This document shows positions 7,019 through 32,000 of a stretch of DNA of 32,000 nucleotides, piece by piece. The notes under the pieces are model-generated. The model saw only the letters and a program-made list of their open reading frames with translations, was not told the DNA's origin and did not search any database. The stretch comes from an uncultured archaeon (GTDB lineage: Archaea > Iainarchaeota > Iainarchaeia > Iainarchaeales > CSSED10-239). The DNA lies in assembly GCA_964586355.1 (NCBI GenBank), contig CAZPGO010000032.1:9505-41504 (forward strand), read 5' to 3'. The stretch's first letter is position 1. Each line of letters starts with the position of its first letter. The translations under genes and the position numbers were made by a program.

Positions 7019-8308
7019 ATGCTTGATATTAAATTTATAAGAGAAAACAAAGATCTAGTAAAAGAAAACACAAAAAAAAAAGGAAAAGATGCTCTTTTAC
7101 CATTAGTTGATGAGATTATAGATCTGGATAAAAAATATAGAGAAGGAATCGTTCTTGCAAACTCTCTAAAACAAAAAAGAAATCAAGTCACAGAAAAAAT
7201 TGCAGAAAATAAACAAAAAGGACTTGGAGTAGATGAGCTTATTTTAGAAGCCAGAGAGTTACCAGGCAAAATAAAAGAAATAGATGAAAAACAAAAAGAA
7301 CTTTTTGAAAAAATAATAGATCTACAAAAAAAATTCCCAAATATTGTTTCAGAAAAAACACCAATAGGTAAAGATGAATCCGAAAATGTAGAGATAGAAA
7401 GATATGGCAAAATTAAAGAATTTGATTTTGAGCAAAAAACACATAGTGAACTTATAGAAAAATTAAATGTTGCTAATTTTGAAGCATCTAGAGAAGTTGC
7501 TGGTAAGGGGTTTTATTATCTTACTGGAGATCTTGCTCTGTTAAATAGAGCACTTATTAATTATGCTACTGATTATTTACAAAGTAAGAACTATACCTAT
7601 GTTTTACCACCAATATTAATTAACAAAAATGCATGTGATGGAGTAATTGATTTTGAATTTTTTAGAGACATGGTGTATAAGATAGAAAATGAAGACCTTT
7701 ATCTTATAGGAACTTCAGAACATCCATTAATATCTATGTTTATAAATAAGACAATTGATGAAGAAAAGCTACCAATAAAACTATTTAGCTATACTCCTTG
7801 TTTTAGAAAGGAAATTGGTAGTCATGGAATAGATGAGAGAGGTCTTTTTAGATTACATCAATTTGATAAAGTTGAGCAAGTTATTATTTGTGATCCATTA
7901 AGTTCAACAGAACTTTTTGAAGAATTAAAAGAGAATACAATTAAATTATTTAAAGATCTAGACCTGCCAATAAGAGTATTAGAGATCTGTACAGGAGATC
8001 TTGGAGATACAAAGCATAGGCAGATAGATGTTGAAGTGTGGTCTCCTAGATCAAATAAGTATATTGAAGTTGGTTCTTGTAGTAACCTAACAGATAATCA
8101 ATCAGTAAAACTAAATATTAAAGCAAAAAATAAACAAAATGACAAACATTATGTTCATACCCTAAATGATACTGCAATTGCAACCTCTAGAGCACTTGTT
8201 GCAATTATTGAAAATAACCAAACAAAAGAAGGAACTATTCAAATTCCAAAAGTCTTACAGAAATATATGTTTGGTAAAACAGAGATTAAAAGAAATAATC
8301 TATTTTAG
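7019..8308 (+). CDS. serS: seryl-tRNA synthetase (class II, standard type)
   Basis: N-terminal coiled-coil arm beginning MLDIKFIRENKDLV; class II core motifs GTSEHPL, FRKEIGSHGIDERGLFRLHQFDKVEQ, and TLNDTAIATSRALVAIIEN. Confidence 0.95.
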   Translation: MLDIKFIRENKDLVKENTKKKGKDALLPLVDEIIDLDKKYREGIVLANSLKQKRNQVTEKIAENKQKGLGVDELILEARELPGKIKEIDEKQKELFEKIIDLQKKFPNIVSEKTPIGKDESENVEIERYGKIKEFDFEQKTHSELIEKLNVANFEASREVAGKGFYYLTGDLALLNRALINYATDYLQSKNYTYVLPPILINKNACDGVIDFEFFRDMVYKIENEDLYLIGTSEHPLISMFINKTIDEEKLPIKLFSYTPCFRKEIGSHGIDERGLFRLHQFDKVEQVIICDPLSSTELFEELKENTIKLFKDLDLPIRVLEICTGDLGDTKHRQIDVEVWSPRSNKYIEVGSCSNLTDNQSVKLNIKAKNKQNDKHYVHTLNDTAIATSRALVAIIENNQTKEGTIQIPKVLQKYMFGKTEIKRNNLF

Positions 8309-24631: not shown

Positions 24632-25549
24632 ATGAAATATAATTTAGATTTACATACGTGTCTTCTAAAGAGAAGATCTCCATCCAAAAGATATTGGAAA
24701 TATGTAAATAAAAATAATTTGTTAGGAACCGCAATAACTGAACAAAATACTCTTAATCCAAAAGGAGCATATTTTGAATTATTAAAAAATAAACCAAAAA
24801 ATAAAGTATTGATTCCAGGAGTCTCAATTAACACCGATTTAGGAGAAGTAATAATTCTTTCAAAATCTCCAGAGATTTATGACTATGGAATAATCTATGA
24901 GCAAAACATAGGTCTAAAAAGAATATACGATTTTTGTGAAAAAAAAGGTTATTTAATTGCTTTTTCACACCCATTTGGCTATGCCACAAATTCAGTAACT
25001 TACAAAATGGGTCTTGATAAATTAGAAAAGTTTGTAAAAACTAAAAATATTGGTGTTGAAACATATAATGGAATGATTGGTTATCTTTCATATTATATGT
25101 ATGATTCCTTTTTTATTAGAAGATTTAGAGATTTATTACTTTTTTTAGAAAAAAATACTCTTTCAAAAACTATTAAAATTTCAAAATATTTTCAAAAAAT
25201 TAATTTGATTTTAGATCAAAAAAGTTATGATGTTGTGTATAGATTTTCAGCAGGAATAAAATTAGGTAAAATTGCAAAATTTGTAATTGCTGGTTCTGGA
25301 ACACAGTATATAGAAAGAATAGGTTCTGGTGTTTTAAGTATTGATCTTTCTAAAAACTTTTTTGAAGATTTTGATGATTCTGAAAAGCAAAACGAATATA
25401 TTTTAAATAAGATCTATAATAAACAAATAATATCAGTAGGTCCACCAGGAACAGACACAGAATCAGGTTTTGAGAGATCTAAAAGAAGAATTAAAAAAAC
25501 AAAAGCTTATATTGATTTAATTTATCTTACAAAAAACTCTGTTAAATGA
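24632..25549 (+). CDS. PHP-domain-like protein with several substituted metal ligands
   Basis: The order of PHP motifs is preserved but degenerate: DLHTC (family DLHxH), AITEQN (iTDHn), PGVSIN (GvE), AFSHPF (aHP), VETYNG (E.yN), AGSGTQY (GSDAH). Its stop overlaps the next gene's start by 4 nt (ATGA at 25546-25549). Confidence 0.5.
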   Translation: MKYNLDLHTCLLKRRSPSKRYWKYVNKNNLLGTAITEQNTLNPKGAYFELLKNKPKNKVLIPGVSINTDLGEVIILSKSPEIYDYGIIYEQNIGLKRIYDFCEKKGYLIAFSHPFGYATNSVTYKMGLDKLEKFVKTKNIGVETYNGMIGYLSYYMYDSFFIRRFRDLLLFLEKNTLSKTIKISKYFQKINLILDQKSYDVVYRFSAGIKLGKIAKFVIAGSGTQYIERIGSGVLSIDLSKNFFEDFDDSEKQNEYILNKIYNKQIISVGPPGTDTESGFERSKRRIKKTKAYIDLIYLTKNSVK

Positions 25550-26292
25550 TTATTATGATGCCTTTATTTATTTATCCTATGTTTTTAATAACTTTAATCT
25601 GCTTAGGATATTATGTTTATCAAGACTTTAAATTTAGAGAAATAAATATTGTTCCAATGATTTTTTTATCAATATTTGCTTTTTTGTACAATCTATATTT
25701 TTTTGTTAGATTAGGGGTTTGGAACTTTTATTTAGTACAAATATTAATAACTTGTTTTTTTGTAGGTGTTATTTTTACACTTGGAAAAATTACTGTTTTT
25801 GCATATATTGGAGAAGGAGATCTATTAACAATTATTTTTATTTCCATAACTAGTGGGCTAGGTATTTTATATGCTCCAGTTATTTTCTTAGCCTCTTTAG
25901 TTGCTATTTTGTTTATTCCTTTGATTTTGTTTTTTTATAATTTGTTTTGTAAGCATTATACAAAGTATTCTTTTTTTGATAATATTTTTTTAATGTCATT
26001 AGGTTATCCTTTATTAATCTCTAAGATAAATAAATTTCATACACCTTTAGAAAAAATAAGTATAAAAAACGGAAGAATTAAAAGAATTGTTAATCTTAAA
26101 CCAAACACAGATCCAAAATCAGAAATTTATGATCTGAAAAAAACAAATTCTATTTATAATTTAAAATATGTTTGGGTCTCTCCATTAATACCTTTTGTGG
26201 TCCCAATTTTTATTTCTTACCTGGTTTTTTCAGTTTTAAGCCTTTTTAACTGTTTTTTAGAACTTGGAAAGTATCTTATTTTATATATATAA
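25546..26292 (+). CDS. A24-family archaeal prepilin/preflagellin peptidase (PibD/FlaK/EppA-like)
   Basis: Polytopic membrane protein. First catalytic Asp sits in YQDFKFREI (D27, nt 25624-25626). The second sits in GEGDL (D92, nt 25819-25821), corresponding to the GxGD motif of the family. Confidence 0.8.
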   Translation: MIIMMPLFIYPMFLITLICLGYYVYQDFKFREINIVPMIFLSIFAFLYNLYFFVRLGVWNFYLVQILITCFFVGVIFTLGKITVFAYIGEGDLLTIIFISITSGLGILYAPVIFLASLVAILFIPLILFFYNLFCKHYTKYSFFDNIFLMSLGYPLLISKINKFHTPLEKISIKNGRIKRIVNLKPNTDPKSEIYDLKKTNSIYNLKYVWVSPLIPFVVPIFISYLVFSVLSLFNCFLELGKYLILYI

Positions 26293-26361
26293 TATTTAAA
26301 AATATAATGGACTTTCACTATTCCTATATAATATTTATATTTTTAAATAAAGATTAATAAT

Positions 26362-29094
26362 ATGGTAGAACTAAAAAAAAATAAATTACATAAGTCAGAG
26401 ATAAAAAAAGAAAAACTATCTGTAAAAGATAGTGGATTAAAAAAATTAAGTTTATTTAATCCTAAAGATAATGATAATTATAAGAATAATTCTAAAAACC
26501 ACTCACTATCAAAAACAAAAGAATATGTTCCAAAAAAGATAGTTTTCAAAAAGTTAGATCTTTCAAAAAAAAACCTTCTACTATCAGCTAATAAAATTAG
26601 TAAAGAACAAGATAAGAAAAGAGATCAAAAAACAAATAATTTAGATACTGGTGAAATCTTAAATTATTTAAAAAGTCAATTACCTAAAGACGATCTAACT
26701 CAAGACTCAAAAGAAGTAACTGATCTAGAAAATACAAAAAAGTCAGAATCTGTTGATGATCTTTTAGATGAATTGTCCTCAAAAACAAAAGATATGGATC
26801 AAGATAACAGCATATCTATAGAACAAATCTCTTTTTTAGATGATTCTCCAAAATTAAAAAAAATGTTTTTTAAAGATCACAATGTTTCTAATCTTTATTC
26901 TAAAATAGATAGTCTAGAAAAACAAACAAATTTAGAAGAAGATAGATTAAATAAGTTAGAAAAAAACAGAAACCTTAAAGAAAATAATTTAGTTAAAGAT
27001 CAAAAAGATTCAAATAACTCAAAAGGACAAAAATTAAAAAAGTTTAAAGTTATTCCTCTAATTGAACAATTTGATATTCCTTCTATTTTGTCATTAAAAG
27101 ACAAAACAAATTTTGAAGGAACAATATTTAAGAAAGGTTTTTTTATAATGGATGATATTAAATTGGGTTCTGATCAATTAAGACCAAATAATTTTATAAA
27201 AGATAAAAATTCTTTAAAACTAAATCCAGAAATTGATAAAAAAAGAGAACAAATTAAAAAAGAAAAAGCTAAAAAGAAAGAAGATAAAAAACAAGAAAAA
27301 AAAGATATTACAAATATAATAGTAAATTCTAAAGAGCTTTATGATGATGTTAGTGACTTTGAGAAAAAATCAAATTCAAAAGAAATAATTCCTAATACTA
27401 AAAAATTATCTTTAGATAAAGATCAAAACAGAAATTCTGATAAAGAGAATTCTATAATCTCAACCAGCTCCGTTTCTAATAATTCAGATACTAATCAAAA
27501 GGTTGATGAGAATGAAGTTTTAAAGAAAAAGAATTCTTTGTTATCTGGTACTAAAGAAACAGGCTTTAGTCATTTGTTACCCTCTAACAAATCTTTTTCT
27601 GATTCAAAAGAGATTTCTCAGAAGTTTATAAGATCTGGTATCCAATCAAAAACAGGATCTGTAATTAAAAGCGACTTTGAAAATAAGGCAAAAACTTATC
27701 CAGAATTAGTGTATACTATTAAATCTAGTGCAAAAAATTTTGATTATAGTTCTGTGTATGAGAAATATAATATTGATGAACTCTCTTATGTAACAATATT
27801 TTATGATAATGTAAAAGGTCTTTGTTATAATATTGTTCAACCAGAGCTTACAGCCCCTCAAGAAAAAATATTTTTAGATATAAAAAAACATTTTTTAGAT
27901 TCAATTGATCAAAATTATTTTTCCTTTAAGGGGGATAAAGAAAATATTAGAAAATATATTAGATCTATTTTTGATATAACAATAGTTAAATTGTCATATA
28001 ATCTATCTAGTCTAGACAAAAAAATGTATTTTAGTTTTATTGAAAGAGATGTTTCTGGGCTAGGTTTTTTGTATAATCTTTTAAATGATAAAAATGTTTT
28101 AGAAGTAACTTGTCCAGGAGAAAAAACAGCAATAACTGTTTATCATATAAAATATGGTGTTTTACAAACAAATCTAGAGTTTGAAAGTATTCCTAAATTA
28201 AACTTGTTTGTTTTATCTTTAACAAAGATTATGGGTCTACATGTAAATTCTAATCAACCAGTAATTTCTGGGCACTTACCAAATGGGTATAAGGTTGAAG
28301 GACTTTATTCTGTTGGGGATATAAGTAATAGAGGGTCTTCTTTTATTATAAAGAAATATCTTGAAGAACCATTAACCCCAGTAACTCTAATGACCTTAGG
28401 TATTGGAAGTATTGATATCTTTTCATATATCTGGAGTGCTATTGATGAAGGTTATCAGATTGTGTTTACTGGTGAAGAAGAAAATTCTTTAATAACTAAC
28501 ACAGTTGCACAATTTTACCCAGATAAAAAAATAATTTCAGTACAGTCTGTTGATAATTTAACATTAGCTCAAAAAAATTGGATTAAAAGAATTTCTTTAG
28601 AAGACACACAGGTAAGTAAAAAACTAATACTTACTCAAAGTATTTCAGAAAAACCAGATTATTTGATATTAGATCAATTTACTGAAGAGTTTTTTGATAC
28701 TCAATGGTATAATCTAAATATGTTGTCTGTTGATAATAAATTAATTGATACTTATTGTGAAAAAGCAAAATCGATTAGTAGTAATCTATTATTAATAGAT
28801 CTTAAAAGAATAAAACAATCCAAAAATCAACAACAAACACAATTTAATAAAATAAAAGAGATCTACAAGGGAAAGGAATATGAGGTGATTGACTTTAATT
28901 CTAAAGATCTAGAATTCCGTGTTAATTTATTGTCTTCAAATATAGATCTAGCAGCCTTTTCTAAGAAAAAGAAATTATTAAGGTGGTTGTTGGATTCTAA
29001 GATCACTAACTATAAGGATTTTAATAGTGTGATAAATGATTATTATTTAGACCCAAATAATTTATTCGAAAAAATAGGATTAAAAGAAAGTTAA
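26362..29094 (+). CDS. FlaI/PilB/GspE-family secretion-ATPase homologue with degenerate catalytic motifs and a ~440-aa low-complexity N-terminal extension
   Basis: The C-terminal ~465 aa follow the archaeal FlaI/type IV pilus ATPase pattern: YNIVQPELT, ERDVSGLGFLYNLLNDKNVLEVTCPG, ISGHLPNGYKVEG, GSSFIIKKY, PLTPVTLM, KNWI, KPDY. However, Walker A is GEEENSLIT (28471-28497), the Asp box is VQSVDN (28540-28557), Walker B is PDYLILDQFTE (28654-28686), and no His box is present. Confidence 0.8.
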   Translation: MVELKKNKLHKSEIKKEKLSVKDSGLKKLSLFNPKDNDNYKNNSKNHSLSKTKEYVPKKIVFKKLDLSKKNLLLSANKISKEQDKKRDQKTNNLDTGEILNYLKSQLPKDDLTQDSKEVTDLENTKKSESVDDLLDELSSKTKDMDQDNSISIEQISFLDDSPKLKKMFFKDHNVSNLYSKIDSLEKQTNLEEDRLNKLEKNRNLKENNLVKDQKDSNNSKGQKLKKFKVIPLIEQFDIPSILSLKDKTNFEGTIFKKGFFIMDDIKLGSDQLRPNNFIKDKNSLKLNPEIDKKREQIKKEKAKKKEDKKQEKKDITNIIVNSKELYDDVSDFEKKSNSKEIIPNTKKLSLDKDQNRNSDKENSIISTSSVSNNSDTNQKVDENEVLKKKNSLLSGTKETGFSHLLPSNKSFSDSKEISQKFIRSGIQSKTGSVIKSDFENKAKTYPELVYTIKSSAKNFDYSSVYEKYNIDELSYVTIFYDNVKGLCYNIVQPELTAPQEKIFLDIKKHFLDSIDQNYFSFKGDKENIRKYIRSIFDITIVKLSYNLSSLDKKMYFSFIERDVSGLGFLYNLLNDKNVLEVTCPGEKTAITVYHIKYGVLQTNLEFESIPKLNLFVLSLTKIMGLHVNSNQPVISGHLPNGYKVEGLYSVGDISNRGSSFIIKKYLEEPLTPVTLMTLGIGSIDIFSYIWSAIDEGYQIVFTGEEENSLITNTVAQFYPDKKIISVQSVDNLTLAQKNWIKRISLEDTQVSKKLILTQSISEKPDYLILDQFTEEFFDTQWYNLNMLSVDNKLIDTYCEKAKSISSNLLLIDLKRIKQSKNQQQTQFNKIKEIYKGKEYEVIDFNSKDLEFRVNLLSSNIDLAAFSKKKKLLRWLLDSKITNYKDFNSVINDYYLDPNNLFEKIGLKES

Positions 29095-29098
29095 AAAT

Positions 29099-29941
29099 AT
29101 GTTTGGAAAAATATATAGTAAAATTGCTGGTGTTTTTTTTGCAGATATTGCAAAAATAATTTCACCTCAATTTAAAAGTTTAGGCAAAACTCTTGAGTTT
29201 ACTGATATTAATGAAAATCTAGTTACCTATTTATCAAACTGTTTATTTTTCTCTTTTTTTATAGGTTTTGTTTTAGAGCTGCTTATGGTTTTTGTGTTGT
29301 TAAAATTAAATATCTATTTTACTATTATCTCTTTTTTGGTAACAATTATTATAGCAGCAAGTTTTGCTGTTTTGATTTTTATTATTCTTTATAGATTTCC
29401 ATATTATATTGTAAAAAGCAAAAAAAAAGATATAGAATCAGAACTAGAGATAAGTTCTAAGCATCTTTCTGTTTTAGAAGATAAAAACTTAACAGTAAAA
29501 GATGTTTTGTTAATCTTACAATCTATTGAAGGAAACAAGCTATTATCTGAAGAATCAAAAAAGATATTAAAGTTAGCAGATCTTAATCATAATCTAAAAA
29601 GCACATTAAAATATATTTGTAGTAATACTTACTCTGAACAAGAATATTCTTTTTTTAGTAAATTAATTGATGTTATTGATAAAAAGATTACACTTTTTGA
29701 AGCAATAACAGAATATTTAACAAGTATAGAACAAGCAAAAAAAGAGAAAGCTGAACAAAGAAAAACAAAAATAAATCTTTTGTTTTTAATTAACATTTTT
29801 TTATTTATATTAATTTTCTTATTAGTTTTTAGTATTTTTTTAATGCCAGTTTATGAAGAGTCAATAAGAGAGCTATTATTAGCAATTGCTATAGTGTTTC
29901 CAATAGTTGAAATAATCTTGGTGTTTGTTTTAAGTAGATGA
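29099..29941 (+). CDS. type IV filament platform protein, single T2SSF-like domain (TadB/FlaJ-half-like)
   Basis: Topology is N-terminal TM pair, ~130-aa cytoplasmic helical domain, then C-terminal TM pair. Lies 4 nt after the FlaI-like gene. The family call rests on topology and context only. Confidence 0.6.
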   Translation: MFGKIYSKIAGVFFADIAKIISPQFKSLGKTLEFTDINENLVTYLSNCLFFSFFIGFVLELLMVFVLLKLNIYFTIISFLVTIIIAASFAVLIFIILYRFPYYIVKSKKKDIESELEISSKHLSVLEDKNLTVKDVLLILQSIEGNKLLSEESKKILKLADLNHNLKSTLKYICSNTYSEQEYSFFSKLIDVIDKKITLFEAITEYLTSIEQAKKEKAEQRKTKINLLFLINIFLFILIFLLVFSIFLMPVYEESIRELLLAIAIVFPIVEIILVFVLSR

Positions 29942-29947
29942 TAGTTT

Positions 29948-31063
29948 ATGAATAAAGTAACAAAAGCAATAAAATTATTTTTTTATAAAAACGAATATCA
30001 GCTATTAGAGCTTTCTGGGATATTTGGTGCTTTTTTAATAGTGTTGATTGCTAATTATTTTTTTGTATCTAGTAAAATGTTTTACTTGATTTTGTTGTTT
30101 GGCTTGTTTGTTGGCTCTTTTGGTTTTATAATTGAATATTTTATAAAACAAGACAAAAAGAAATCCATAGAAACAGAATATGGTTATTTCTTATCAGATC
30201 TTTCTAAAGAATATAAAAAAACAAATAATATGTCTTTATCTTTATCTAACTTATTAGAGTCTAACTTTTATGGTAGTATTAATCTAGAAATAAAAAGACT
30301 TTCTAATAGAGTGTCTTGGGGAGAAAGTTTTGAAGAGTCTTTAAAATCAATTAATGAAAATATTAATAGCCCAATAATAGAACATAGTCTTAGTCTATTA
30401 AATGTTTTAAAAGAATCAGCAATGACTTATGATAAAGTTTTACTAAATATTTCAAAAGATATTAATATTTTTAAAAGTGAGACTAGAAGTAGAAAATATT
30501 TCAAAAATCTTTTTAACTTGTCTATTGTTTTTTATTTTTTATTTATATTAATATTAATCTATATAGATTTTATAATAGGAAAAAACTTTTTATGGTTTAG
30601 CGGTTCAGAAGAAATGACAAGAGTTTTTTTTGATAATTTTTTGTTGTATATTGGTTTGTTGTTAGCTTTTTTTACTGCATTTGTAATGTACTCCATTAAT
30701 TCTGATAGACCAATTGTTTTGTTAAAATATGTGTCTGTTTTATTTTTAATAACTATAATATTATTTCAAATCTTCATTCCAAAACCAGATGCTGATGAAG
30801 TACTAATTGATACCATTAATTATTTAGTAAAACATAATAGTGATAAAGAAATAGAGATAGACCAAATAATTGCAATAAAATCCATTAGTTCTAAATTGGT
30901 GGTTGATAAAACAGGAATTGAAACTCTTGTTTTTATAAATAATGATTCTTTAGAGAGAATAGAAGAGTTTGGATTAATTATTGAAAATCCTTTGTTTTTT
31001 AATTTTTTAATAACTAAAAAAAGCAATCTAAATTATGTTGTTTACTATACCAAGTTGGAATAA
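29948..31063 (+). CDS. type IV filament platform protein, second single T2SSF-like domain (TadC/FlaJ-half-like) with extra ~90-aa C-terminal domain
   Basis: Same TM/helical-domain/TM arrangement (…EYGYFLSDLSKEYKKTNNMSLSLSNLLES…IKRLSNRVSWGESFEESLKSI…). Lies 6 nt after the previous gene. Has an additional soluble C-terminal segment. Confidence 0.6.
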   Translation: MNKVTKAIKLFFYKNEYQLLELSGIFGAFLIVLIANYFFVSSKMFYLILLFGLFVGSFGFIIEYFIKQDKKKSIETEYGYFLSDLSKEYKKTNNMSLSLSNLLESNFYGSINLEIKRLSNRVSWGESFEESLKSINENINSPIIEHSLSLLNVLKESAMTYDKVLLNISKDINIFKSETRSRKYFKNLFNLSIVFYFLFILILIYIDFIIGKNFLWFSGSEEMTRVFFDNFLLYIGLLLAFFTAFVMYSINSDRPIVLLKYVSVLFLITIILFQIFIPKPDADEVLIDTINYLVKHNSDKEIEIDQIIAIKSISSKLVVDKTGIETLVFINNDSLERIEEFGLIIENPLFFNFLITKKSNLNYVVYYTKLE

Positions 31064-31066
31064 ACT

Positions 31067-31408
31067 ATGATCTTAAACAAAACCACAAATAAAAAAATAA
31101 TTTCTAAAAAGAAAATTGCAGACACCTTTATAAAAAGAGCAATTGGTCTAATGTTTTCTTCTAAGAAAAAATTTGATTTTGGTTTGATTTTTGATCTAAA
31201 AAGGGAAACTGTTACTGGTGCTGGTATTCATATGTTTTTTGTGTTTTTTAGTATTAATGTTTTGTTTTTGGATAAAAATAAAAAAATTATTGATTATAAG
31301 AGATTAAGACCATTTACTATCTATCAACCAGTAAAAAAAATAAGATATATTATAGAATTACCAGTAAAATGTAATAACTATAAAATAAATGACAAGGTGG
31401 AGTGGTAA
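31067..31408 (+). CDS. DUF192-family protein (COG1430-like)
   Basis: FIKRAIGLMF...GLIF...IHMFFVFFSINVLFLDKNKKIIDY...RYIIELP matches the DUF192 pattern (rGLM.r....g.lF......hM..m.fpiDv.flD......V.....yvLE). Confidence 0.65.
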   Translation: MILNKTTNKKIISKKKIADTFIKRAIGLMFSSKKKFDFGLIFDLKRETVTGAGIHMFFVFFSINVLFLDKNKKIIDYKRLRPFTIYQPVKKIRYIIELPVKCNNYKINDKVEW

Positions 31409-31411
31409 AGT

Positions 31412-32000
31412 ATTTCTAAAATTTTATTAAATAAATCTAAAGGGCTATCAGAGATTATAACTGTCGTTTTAATTATAGTTATTGTTGCAATTTTGTCTGT
31501 AATTGTTTATAGTTGGTCAAAAGACACCATGGATAATAGTTTAAGTAGAATAGATAAACAACAAAGCGATCTTGAAAGATATTTGGATTGTAGTGAGGTT
31601 AGGTTAAAAGTTGATTCTTGTAAGATTGACAAATACACTAAAGACATAAATATTTTAGTTTTAAATCAATCACAGATGGATCTTCCAGATTTTATATTAA
31701 GTATTTTAGGTAAAACCTATGATGGAGAAGAATTTAATCAAAACATTTTATTTTCAAAAAAACTTAAGAAAGGAGAAAATTCTTTTCTTACAACTCTAGA
31801 TGCTGTGACTGTTTTTGATGATTCTAATATTGATGATTTAGATCTGAGGAAGATAGATCAGATATCTTTAGGCAATCAGAGATGCAATACTCTTTTTATT
31901 TCAGATCTTAATTGTGAGATTGTAGATAGTTTAGAAGATCATTTAGTTGCGTATTACAGTTTAGATCAAGAAGATCTAATTTATAATGAATTGGAAGGAT
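31412..32000 (+). CDS. archaeal type IV pilin-like protein with class III signal peptide (partial; runs off the window end); proposed ATT start
   Basis: Not in the ORF track. The frame is open from the TAA at 31406-31408 to nt 32000. It encodes (I/M)SKILLNKSKG|LSEIITVVLIIVIVAILSVIVYSW, i.e. a short basic leader, a KG cleavage motif and a hydrophobic helix, as in archaeal Pilin_N-type pilins. There is no ATG/GTG/TTG before the helix. AAGGTGGAG (31394-31402) is a Shine-Dalgarno-like motif upstream of ATT 31412. Confidence 0.65.
   Translation, partial: MSKILLNKSKGLSEIITVVLIIVIVAILSVIVYSWSKDTMDNSLSRIDKQQSDLERYLDCSEVRLKVDSCKIDKYTKDINILVLNQSQMDLPDFILSILGKTYDGEEFNQNILFSKKLKKGENSFLTTLDAVTVFDDSNIDDLDLRKIDQISLGNQRCNTLFISDLNCEIVDSLEDHLVAYYSLDQEDLIYNELEG

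Follow-up and report, generated by a model that had tools for sequence, protein, structure and literature searches.

A conserved, apparently catalytically dead FlaI-like ATPase in a split-platform type IV pilus operon of Iainarchaeota

In Methanococcus maripaludis, the Epd (EppA-dependent) pilus is served by an A24 peptidase of its own, EppA, and by an assembly ATPase named EpdL. In this pilus and in Epd-like or clade 1/2 archaeal type IV pili (T4P), two contiguous genes encode platform proteins with a single T2SSF domain each (PMC4858521, PMC6668835). Split platforms of this kind are on record for Epd-like systems of archaea and for many systems of clade 2, and the bacterial TadB/TadC proteins are considered to derive from them (PMC6668835, PMC4858521). 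The assembly ATPase of the Epd and Epd-like systems is a working motor, and it is accompanied by a secondary, non-motor FlaH-like partner with an NTPase fold (PMC6668835). Here we describe a T4P operon located at positions 25546–32000 of a 32,000-nucleotide (nt) stretch of DNA, hereafter the window, from an Iainarchaeota (DPANN) archaeon. The operon shares with the Epd and Epd-like systems the split platform, a class III signal on its pilin, a plausible role in adhesion and a non-motor component with an NTPase fold. However, this component is a dead copy of the motor itself and not a KaiC/RecA-like protein, the pilin is a LamG protein of 537 amino acids (aa) and not a short pilin of the Flp/Epd type, and the operon contains a DUF192 gene, which has not been described in those systems. 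To our knowledge, the assembly ATPase is considered indispensable in every type IV filament machine; in the present case, a whole lineage keeps an otherwise complete T4P operon with an ATPase that, judged by its sequence, is catalytically dead and under strong purifying selection. Our literature search found no pseudo-ATPase in type IV pili, and no description of a conserved, catalytically dead PilB/FlaI-family paralog in a type IV filament locus, whereas the rest of the locus is of a known kind. An initial annotation of the window had held the combination of a split platform, a dead ATPase and DUF192 to be undescribed, a view that we retain for the ATPase and not for the platform.

The bacterial Tad/Flp pilus (TadA/CpaF, TadB, TadC, TadV, TadZ) also has a split platform, TadB/TadC, and the two half-size platform genes of the window were initially likened to this bacterial arrangement. 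A split platform is not peculiar to bacterial Tad systems, however, being known from the archaeal systems named above and from orthologous DPANN loci. The Tad peptidase has no methyltransferase domain, like the peptidase of the window; TadZ is an atypical, non-hydrolyzing component with an NTPase fold of the MinD/ParA type, not of the VirB11/FlaI type; and TadA is an active, even bifunctional, motor. CpaF was a lower-rank structural match to the model of the window ATPase homolog (E = 5e-18, template-modeling (TM) score 0.47). The Tad/Flp pilus differs from the window system in being bacterial, often with a secretin, and in its tiny Flp peptide pilins. The closest solved structures (2oap and 4ii7) and the closest curated models for the ATPase homolog, the peptidase and platform protein 1 were those of the archaellum proteins FlaI, FlaJ and FlaK and of afGspE. 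However, FlaI is catalytically active and FlaJ is one polypeptide, whereas in the window the platform is split and Pfam domain scans, which took in all open reading frames (ORFs) of at least 80 aa, detected no other archaellum genes (archaellins or the accessory families FlaC–H). Among the components expected of a type IV filament system, the locus has the peptidase, the T2SSF platform and a class III pilin (without a canonical start codon), and it has no motor ATPase with functional catalytic motifs; a motif-intact paralog is encoded ~23 kb away. The EccC pseudoATPase domain of ESX/type VII secretion (bioRxiv 10.1101/800169) likewise keeps the P-loop NTPase fold without the catalytic motifs, presumably in a structural or coupling role. 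It belongs, however, to an unrelated machine and to another subfamily, and it is one domain of a multi-ATPase polypeptide, not a stand-alone paralog with its own platform.

The window has a G+C content of ~25% and contains archaeal housekeeping genes, including those for NMD3, SerRS, SMC and a beta-CASP nuclease. The 15 homologous genome hits were all from uncultured archaea, and those that carry a lineage name were all Iainarchaeota/Diapherotrites, including the complete genome of Candidatus Forterrea multitransposorum, in agreement with the DPANN-like genome that had been supposed. From 25546 to the window end, six co-directional genes on the + strand, here called module A, encode a peptidase, the ATPase homolog, platform proteins 1 and 2, a DUF192 protein and a pilin-like adhesin. 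The first gap is 69 nt (26293–26361), and the others are 4, 6 and 3 nt, followed by 3 nt to the first possible pilin start; all of the coordinates given in the initial annotation were exact in the ORF list. The second gene (26362–29094, + strand) encodes a 910-aa protein that matches afGspE (2oap, 1.6e-34) and FlaI (4ii7, 1.1e-28). It consists of an N-terminal extension (aa 1–455; 26362–27726), a FlaI/GspE-type N-terminal domain that aligns to afGspE and FlaI (aa 456–690; 27727–28431), and a degenerate RecA-like ATPase domain with C-terminal helices, supported by alignments, AlphaFold2 (AF2) and Foldseek (aa 691–910; 28432–29094). The protein has no Pfam T2SSE match, the NCBIfam FlaI model is matched only at positions 6–356 of 527, and Pfam gives a weak PilB3_C match at residues 868–905. 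Alignment located remnants of three catalytic motifs. The P-loop remnant IVFTGEEENSLITN (28459–28500) reads G-EEEN-SLIT against the canonical Walker A sequence GxxxxGKT (GGTASGKTT), being two residues shorter and without the Lys. In the Asp box remnant ISVQSVDNL (28534–28560), VQSVDN stands in place of IEDTxE, and in the Walker B remnant PDYLILDQFTEE (28654–28689) the canonical DYIVLGEVRG is DYLILDQFTE, with GE changed to DQ. The segment with the His box is deleted. The annotation of this gene as a FlaI-like pseudo-ATPase was thus borne out: it is a clear homolog with all four catalytic motifs lost.

The loss is shared by the whole family, for which we compared 17 members, namely the window copy and those of 16 further loci. 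The motif GxxxxGK[ST] occurred in none of the 17, the P-loop was one or two residues short in all of them, and the former motif positions (Walker A, Asp box and Walker B) were not conserved even within the family. An exhaustive profile search of a library of 1.84 billion representative proteins returned 16 representatives above 650 bits and two fragments, followed by a sharp drop to P-loop-bearing ATPases; one additional, distant pseudo-ATPase (P0169) was also found. The AF2 model of residues 460–910 (mean pLDDT 89.1, pTM 0.84; ~90 for the N-terminal domain) superposed on both domains of afGspE and FlaI, and Foldseek matched it to afGspE 2oap with an E value of 5e-32 (TM score 0.81 for chain 2). 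This retained fold and hexameric-ATPase architecture, together with an acidic residue at the Walker B Glu position of some orthologs (VDEF), might suggest that the protein is still active by means of non-canonical residues and that the operon is a T4P locus of the ordinary type, whose motor has diverged greatly. We regard this as very improbable, given the shortened P-loop without Gly-Lys-Thr in every member, the drift of the Walker A, Asp box and Walker B residues within the family and the deletion of the His box. The reading frame was intact in the window and in the 16 divergent loci (44–57% identity), and the ratio of nonsynonymous to synonymous substitution rates (dN/dS) of the degenerate ATPase domain was 0.02–0.21. 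The motif loss across the family, the purifying selection and the retained predicted fold together indicate, as far as sequences can, that the dead ATPase is a conserved pseudoenzyme and not a product of decay, and we propose that the predicted loss of nucleotide binding and hydrolysis happened long ago. In other lineages, two members of the FlaI family had partly degenerate motifs (P0209, GDAGTGRTS and VGDTRD; P0239, GKAKSGKH and LDRVSG), so that catalysis may have been lost more than once in this family. A further FlaI-like ATPase (P0228) carried an apparent large intein inside the P-loop (GGTATGK-C...HN-TTFLN).

Constraint was unevenly distributed along the pseudo-ATPase. The FlaI/GspE-type N-terminal domain was the best-conserved part of the protein (dN/dS 0.05–0.14; mean pairwise identity 0.61). 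The N-terminal extension, which is predicted to be non-membrane, was fast-evolving (dN/dS 0.2–0.7; mean pairwise identity 0.29) and rich in K (20%), S (12%), L (10%), N (9.5%) and D (9.5%). Its length varied widely among the orthologs, whose total length ranged from 772 to 1116 aa, and it contained the short conserved motifs SFLDDxPK, VSNLYxKIDxIE and PLIExxxIPEI. According to the Forterrea genome paper, repeats in a “secretion-related ATPase” confounded the assembly (PMC5905446); the gene in question is probably that of this pseudo-ATPase.

The remaining parts of the machine appear to be ordinary. The first gene of module A (25546–26292, + strand) encodes a 248-aa FlaK-like class III signal (prepilin/preflagellin) peptidase of the A24 family, with matches to Pfam Arc_PepC_II (1.4e-10) and, over the full length (residues 13–231), to NCBIfam FlaK (4.9e-12). 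Both catalytic residues, D27 and D92 (the latter in GEGD), are present, as had been noted, and were invariant in 16 orthologs; hydropathy analysis, which was also used for the platform topologies, gave at least six hydrophobic segments. No other prepilin peptidase was seen in the sequence examined. Platform protein 1 (29099–29941, + strand; 280 aa) has one T2SSF domain, corresponding to the N-terminal half of FlaJ; it scored above the gathering score of Pfam T2SSF (9.6e-9) and matched positions 9–243 of 555 of NCBIfam FlaJ (1.8e-9). Platform protein 2 (29948–31063, + strand; 371 aa) combines one T2SSF domain with a soluble C-terminal domain of ~90 aa. Its own T2SSF match (2.4e-4) fell below the gathering score, and the assignment was made through its orthologs, nine out of 10 of which matched T2SSF (best, 1.9e-8). 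Predicted transmembrane segments lie at residues 41–59, 79–97, 228–246 and 259–277 of platform protein 1, with a soluble region at 100–225, and at about 22–62 and 193–273 of platform protein 2, with soluble regions at 65–190 and 283–371. Both proteins thus show a transmembrane pair, a soluble domain of ~120 aa and a second transmembrane pair or triple, in line with the layout initially described. Being contiguous and 6 nt apart, the two half-size genes form a split platform as defined for archaeal systems (PMC6668835). The profile searches that had been suggested for these two proteins gave a divided answer, since Pfam linked them to T2SSF, whereas alignments against the PDB sequences yielded chance matches only. 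Alignment of the two proteins to each other with hhalign was not significant either (Neff ~2.3), and the mutual paralogy of the two platform halves is therefore based on their Pfam T2SSF matches.

Gene order in the relatives agreed with that in the window: a 305-aa gene described below, the peptidase, the pseudo-ATPase, platform proteins 1 and 2 and DUF192 followed one another in nearly all of them, at 44–64% protein identity. The core of four genes (peptidase, pseudo-ATPase, T2SSF, T2SSF) was also present at the distant locus that encodes P0169. In the relative L014 (DAOMZT010000004.1; L014:8765–11754), only 66 nt separate the pseudo-ATPase from DUF192, and the two platform genes are missing, with no run of N at this position; in its close relative L019, the pseudo-ATPase of which shares 84% identity with that of L014, the platform genes are present. 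The DUF192/COG1430 gene (31067–31408, + strand) encodes a 113-aa protein without a signal peptide. Its identity was upheld by Pfam (1.7e-11) and NCBIfam PRK03760 (2.7e-33), and by an AF2 model (pLDDT 87) for which Foldseek returned only structural-genomics DUF192 entries (3pjy and 3m7a, TM scores 0.78–0.81). The gene lies after platform gene 2 in 14 of the 15 close relatives; it is, however, absent from the most distant pseudo-ATPase locus (P0169), and elsewhere in DPANN it was unlinked to T4P genes in a Woesearchaeota genome and ~3 kb from the T4P core in another lineage. We found no link between DUF192 and pili in the literature, and with the gene unlinked or loosely linked in these two other DPANN lineages, the idea that DUF192 is a general T4P component was dropped. 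Its linkage to the operon is lineage-specific, and the protein is a candidate member of the machine only.

The last gene of module A is represented in the window by its 5′ part (31412–32000, + strand), which encodes a class III signal peptide and a hydrophobic N-terminal helix with the motif KSKG/LSEIITVVLIIVIVAILS (..KSKG/LSEIITVV..). The sequence passed the TIGR02537 archaellin/pilin N-terminal model (21.2 bits; cut-off, 20 bits) and matched the N-terminus of UpsA (2e-4). On the full contig, the gene runs beyond the window and its product is 537 aa long with a Laminin_G_3 domain. The class III signal pilin that had been annotated is hence correct with respect to the signal, but the product is a LamG adhesin-like protein and not a plain pilin; its LamG domain makes an adhesion role plausible and is consistent with the earlier proposal of an attachment apparatus. 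The stretch from DUF192 to the window end showed no ORF for a short pilin. Pilin and DUF192 share one reading frame, and that of the pilin opens immediately behind the stop codon of DUF192 (31406–31530). Ahead of the signal peptide it offers two ATT codons, at 31412 and 31421, and no ATG, GTG or TTG. The N-terminal sequence was identical in three further contigs and differed at 1 of 105 residues in a short fourth. Public gene calls start the pilin at TTG 31493 or ATG 31529, whereby the signal peptide is cut off. A Shine–Dalgarno reading of GGTGGAG upstream of the ATT was dropped, as the other operon genes have no such motif. Homologous pilins after DUF192 in L013, L016–L018 and L022 start with M-x(3-9)-KK-[SA]IS. 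The number of pilin genes at this position is variable: the closer relatives have none, and the Forterrea group has from one to three. The absence of the pilin from many relatives, the lack of a canonical start codon in the window and the one metagenome-assembled genome (MAG), L014, without both platform genes might be taken as signs that a duplicated T4P module has become functionless and is on its way to loss. Such decay is largely refuted by the intact reading frames across all 17 loci, the low dN/dS of the dead domain, the strict synteny and the high-confidence AF2 model, and we consider it scarcely tenable.

A T2SSE ATPase was detected neither elsewhere in the window nor in the 10 kb that follow it on the full contig. 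The claim that the locus has no active motor thus holds for the 6.5-kb locus and these 10 kb, but not for the organism. An active-type ATPase (P0070) is encoded at 58,913–60,613 of JGI contig Ga0643561_0000246 (63,384 nt), with intact motifs (Walker A GNTGSGKT, VEEVRE, GEVRS and TIHAQ); assuming collinearity, this would be on the same strand, ~19.8 kb past the window end and ~22.7 kb downstream of the pseudo-ATPase stop codon. The first gene of the window is found at 7,558–8,163 of this contig, which shared 100% identity with the window across the 11,021 nt compared (first 18 kb) and matched it in G+C content. P0070 begins what we call module B (L109:10001–13890, corresponding to 58,913–62,802 of Ga0643561_0000246): this T2SSE ATPase carries an N-terminal 4Fe-4S dicluster ferredoxin (Fer4) domain and precedes two T2SSF genes, for proteins of 243 and 263 aa, and a DedA/VTT gene. 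At least five LamG-type pilins are encoded around P0070, with N-termini ..SPLIATILLIVVS... Six LamG (Laminin_G_3), DUF5018 or unannotated proteins were clustered there (L109:2928–6635; L108:11760–14129; L002:16657–17754), and the five whose N-termini were read all start with ..[RK]S[LV]SPLIA[ST]ILLIVVS... Together with the window operon, the pilus-related genes span ~35 kb of overlapping contigs, with housekeeping genes between them. No peptidase gene was called next to module B in the window organism or in L022/L023. In L022/L023 (L023:10001–15352), the pseudo-ATPase shares its contig with the same module, which is located 18 kb further downstream. In the relative L011 (L011:10068–14110), a 596-aa ATPase with an N-terminal 4Fe-4S dicluster domain, an intact GNTGSGKT and a Pfam T2SSE match of 1.7e-34 follows DUF192 directly; next come a gene of 251 aa whose T2SSF match is weak and below threshold, one of 272 aa without a family match, and a DedA/VTT gene. 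According to the initial annotation, a canonical ATPase immediately downstream would make this an ordinary locus with an extra paralog; that is the situation in L011, and nearly so in the window organism. The nearby active ATPase thus weakens the motorless reading of the locus. The ferredoxin domain was called in 95 of the best 120 matches to the Fer4-ATPase, and the named ones among these 120 include Iainarchaeota/Diapherotrites and Micrarchaeota; the protein may be a redox-sensing pilus motor.

On balance, and with modest confidence, we favor the view that the operon is one module of a two-module adhesive T4P system, in which the dead ATPase serves as a structural or regulatory ring and the energy is provided in trans. 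Module A would supply the peptidase, a split platform, DUF192, the LamG pilin/adhesin and the inert FlaI-like paralog, whereas the Fer4-fused, motif-intact T2SSE ATPase, a second split platform, at least five LamG-type pilins and the DedA/VTT protein would come from module B. Pilins of both modules would be processed by the one peptidase, that of module A. The strong conservation of the N-terminal domain suggests docking of the dead ATPase, probably in the form of a ring, to its cognate platform, where it may act as a static scaffold, adaptor or regulator. Such a role would be comparable to that of the non-hydrolyzing FlaH and TadZ partners, although the ancestry is not comparable. The energy for filament assembly would come from the ATPase of module B, and the product would be an adhesive pilus, plausibly for attachment to surfaces or host cells.

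Some of the same observations can be arranged differently. Module B has its own platform and pilins and looks self-sufficient, the four-gene core of module A stays together even in the distant lineage with no other T4P gene in view, and the dead domain is strongly constrained, all of which would suit an autonomous, ATP-independent machine, whose static membrane base anchors or exports LamG adhesins without polymerization, or which draws on another energy source. We consider this unlikely. We know of no type IV filament system that assembles without a hexameric ATPase. An active Fer4-ATPase is nearby in every relative with enough contig, and module B has no peptidase, which argues that the two modules are interdependent. 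Two published surveys contain no case of a type IV filament without a hexameric ATPase (PMC6668835, PMC4858521). It is also conceivable, if improbable, that the pseudo-ATPase is a brake that vies with an active ATPase for a platform and locks, pauses or switches pilus dynamics, as an inert analog of the PilB/PilT exchange. A brake of this kind would be consistent with the partner-binding N-terminal domain being the most conserved region, with the intact predicted fold and with a long, variable, disordered extension that could take regulatory input; however, platform genes of its own co-evolve with the pseudo-ATPase and are strictly syntenic with it, which points to a dedicated complex rather than to competition at the platform of module B.

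The favored two-module system has to be weighed against several points that speak the other way. The modules are linked by synteny and co-occurrence, and servicing of the platform of module A by the ATPase of module B is conjecture. The pseudo-ATPase and the Fer4-ATPase share ~20% identity over 212 aa, and mixed hexamers are therefore unlikely. The placement of the T4P operon on Ga0643561_0000246 is suggested by the 100% identity of the overlap and by the same count of four contigs of at least 50 kb that carry both the first gene of the window and DUF192. L014 has the pseudo-ATPase and DUF192 without platform genes, which does not agree with strict docking on a platform unless this MAG is degenerating or misassembled, and in many close relatives module A is not accompanied by a pilin gene. 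More tentatively, and with rather more doubt than confidence, we suggest a two-ring machine, in which a dead FlaI-like ring, fixed on its own split platform while protein identity fell to 44–57%, would be a static cap, adaptor or clutch, with the work done in trans by an ATPase whose 4Fe-4S domain is perhaps redox-sensing, or else a module that has turned from a type IV filament system into a motorless adhesin anchor.

The best active relatives of the pseudo-ATPase were PilB3_C-type ATPases from Aenigmatarchaeota and one further lineage (~25% identity). Two loci from these lineages (L113 and L114) share with module A the order ATPase, T2SSF of ~290 aa and T2SSF of ~310 aa, and BLAST paired the pseudo-ATPase with ATP585, platform protein 1 with the first of the two T2SSF genes (T2SSF296) and platform protein 2 with the second (T2SSF315), these being their best outside matches, as expected of an orthologous module. 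L113 contains two tandem modules of an ATPase and a split platform, one of them adjoining a DedA/VTT gene, which mirrors modules A and B. However, both ATPases of L113 keep the Pfam T2SSE domain, the ATPases P0015 and P0011 have an intact P-loop, Walker B motif and His box, and L113 and L114 lack a long N-terminal extension, an adjacent peptidase and DUF192. The tandem modules of L113 indicate that paired split-platform modules occur outside Iainarchaeota too, and such pairs may be ancestral in DPANN. We propose that in Iainarchaeota the ATPase of one module lost catalysis and gained a long, predicted disordered extension.

The lineage thereby offers a natural system in which to ask what the ATPase ring contributes beyond hydrolysis, such as platform gating, pilin recruitment or regulation, and whether one active motor can service two platforms. 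There is also a consequence for annotation. Pseudo-ATPases of this family receive no T2SSE call and are labeled hypothetical, and gene callers cut off the signal peptide of the pilin, so that automated surveys would score such genomes as having no pili or incomplete ones. With its LamG pilins, two platforms and ferredoxin-fused motor, the ~35-kb region is a concrete candidate for cell attachment in DPANN.

Upstream of the peptidase, a conserved gene of 305 aa (24632–25549, + strand), to which no function is assigned, overlaps the peptidase start codon by 4 nt (ATGA) and probably opens the co-transcribed block. It was directly upstream of the peptidase in 13 of the 15 related loci, at 55–59% identity; it thus belongs to the syntenic block, is one of its more conserved genes and had not been counted as part of the operon by the initial annotation. 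It had no match in Pfam, NCBIfam or the PDB sequences, and its candidacy as a PHP-phosphoesterase was dropped for want of support in these databases. On the full contig, the 10 kb downstream of the window contain the LamG pilin gene, rpL10e, a methyltransferase gene, NDK, an ABC transporter and a second LamG protein, which answers the earlier suggestion to look past nt 32000 for further pilins or adhesins. Between the pilus operon and rpL10e lies a conserved noncoding element of ~200 nt (L002:11954–12525, equivalent to window positions ~33,020–33,591, just outside the window), which has the same position in L005, L006, L008–L010, L012, L014 and L019. It contains a TATA-like box ATATATAAAGATTTTAGGGC, invariant blocks, a terminal hairpin (AACAGG-TCC-CTGTT) and a U-run. 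No Rfam family reached its threshold for this element, which looks like a small RNA gene of ~110 nt. On contig ML8_10000279, ~7–9 kb upstream of the window start (L105:570–2290), two tandem CbiA/ParA-type NTPases fused to 4Fe-4S domains adjoin a small protein with a Nitro_FeMo-Co family domain; this pair is located >30 kb from the pilus operon and is probably unrelated to it.

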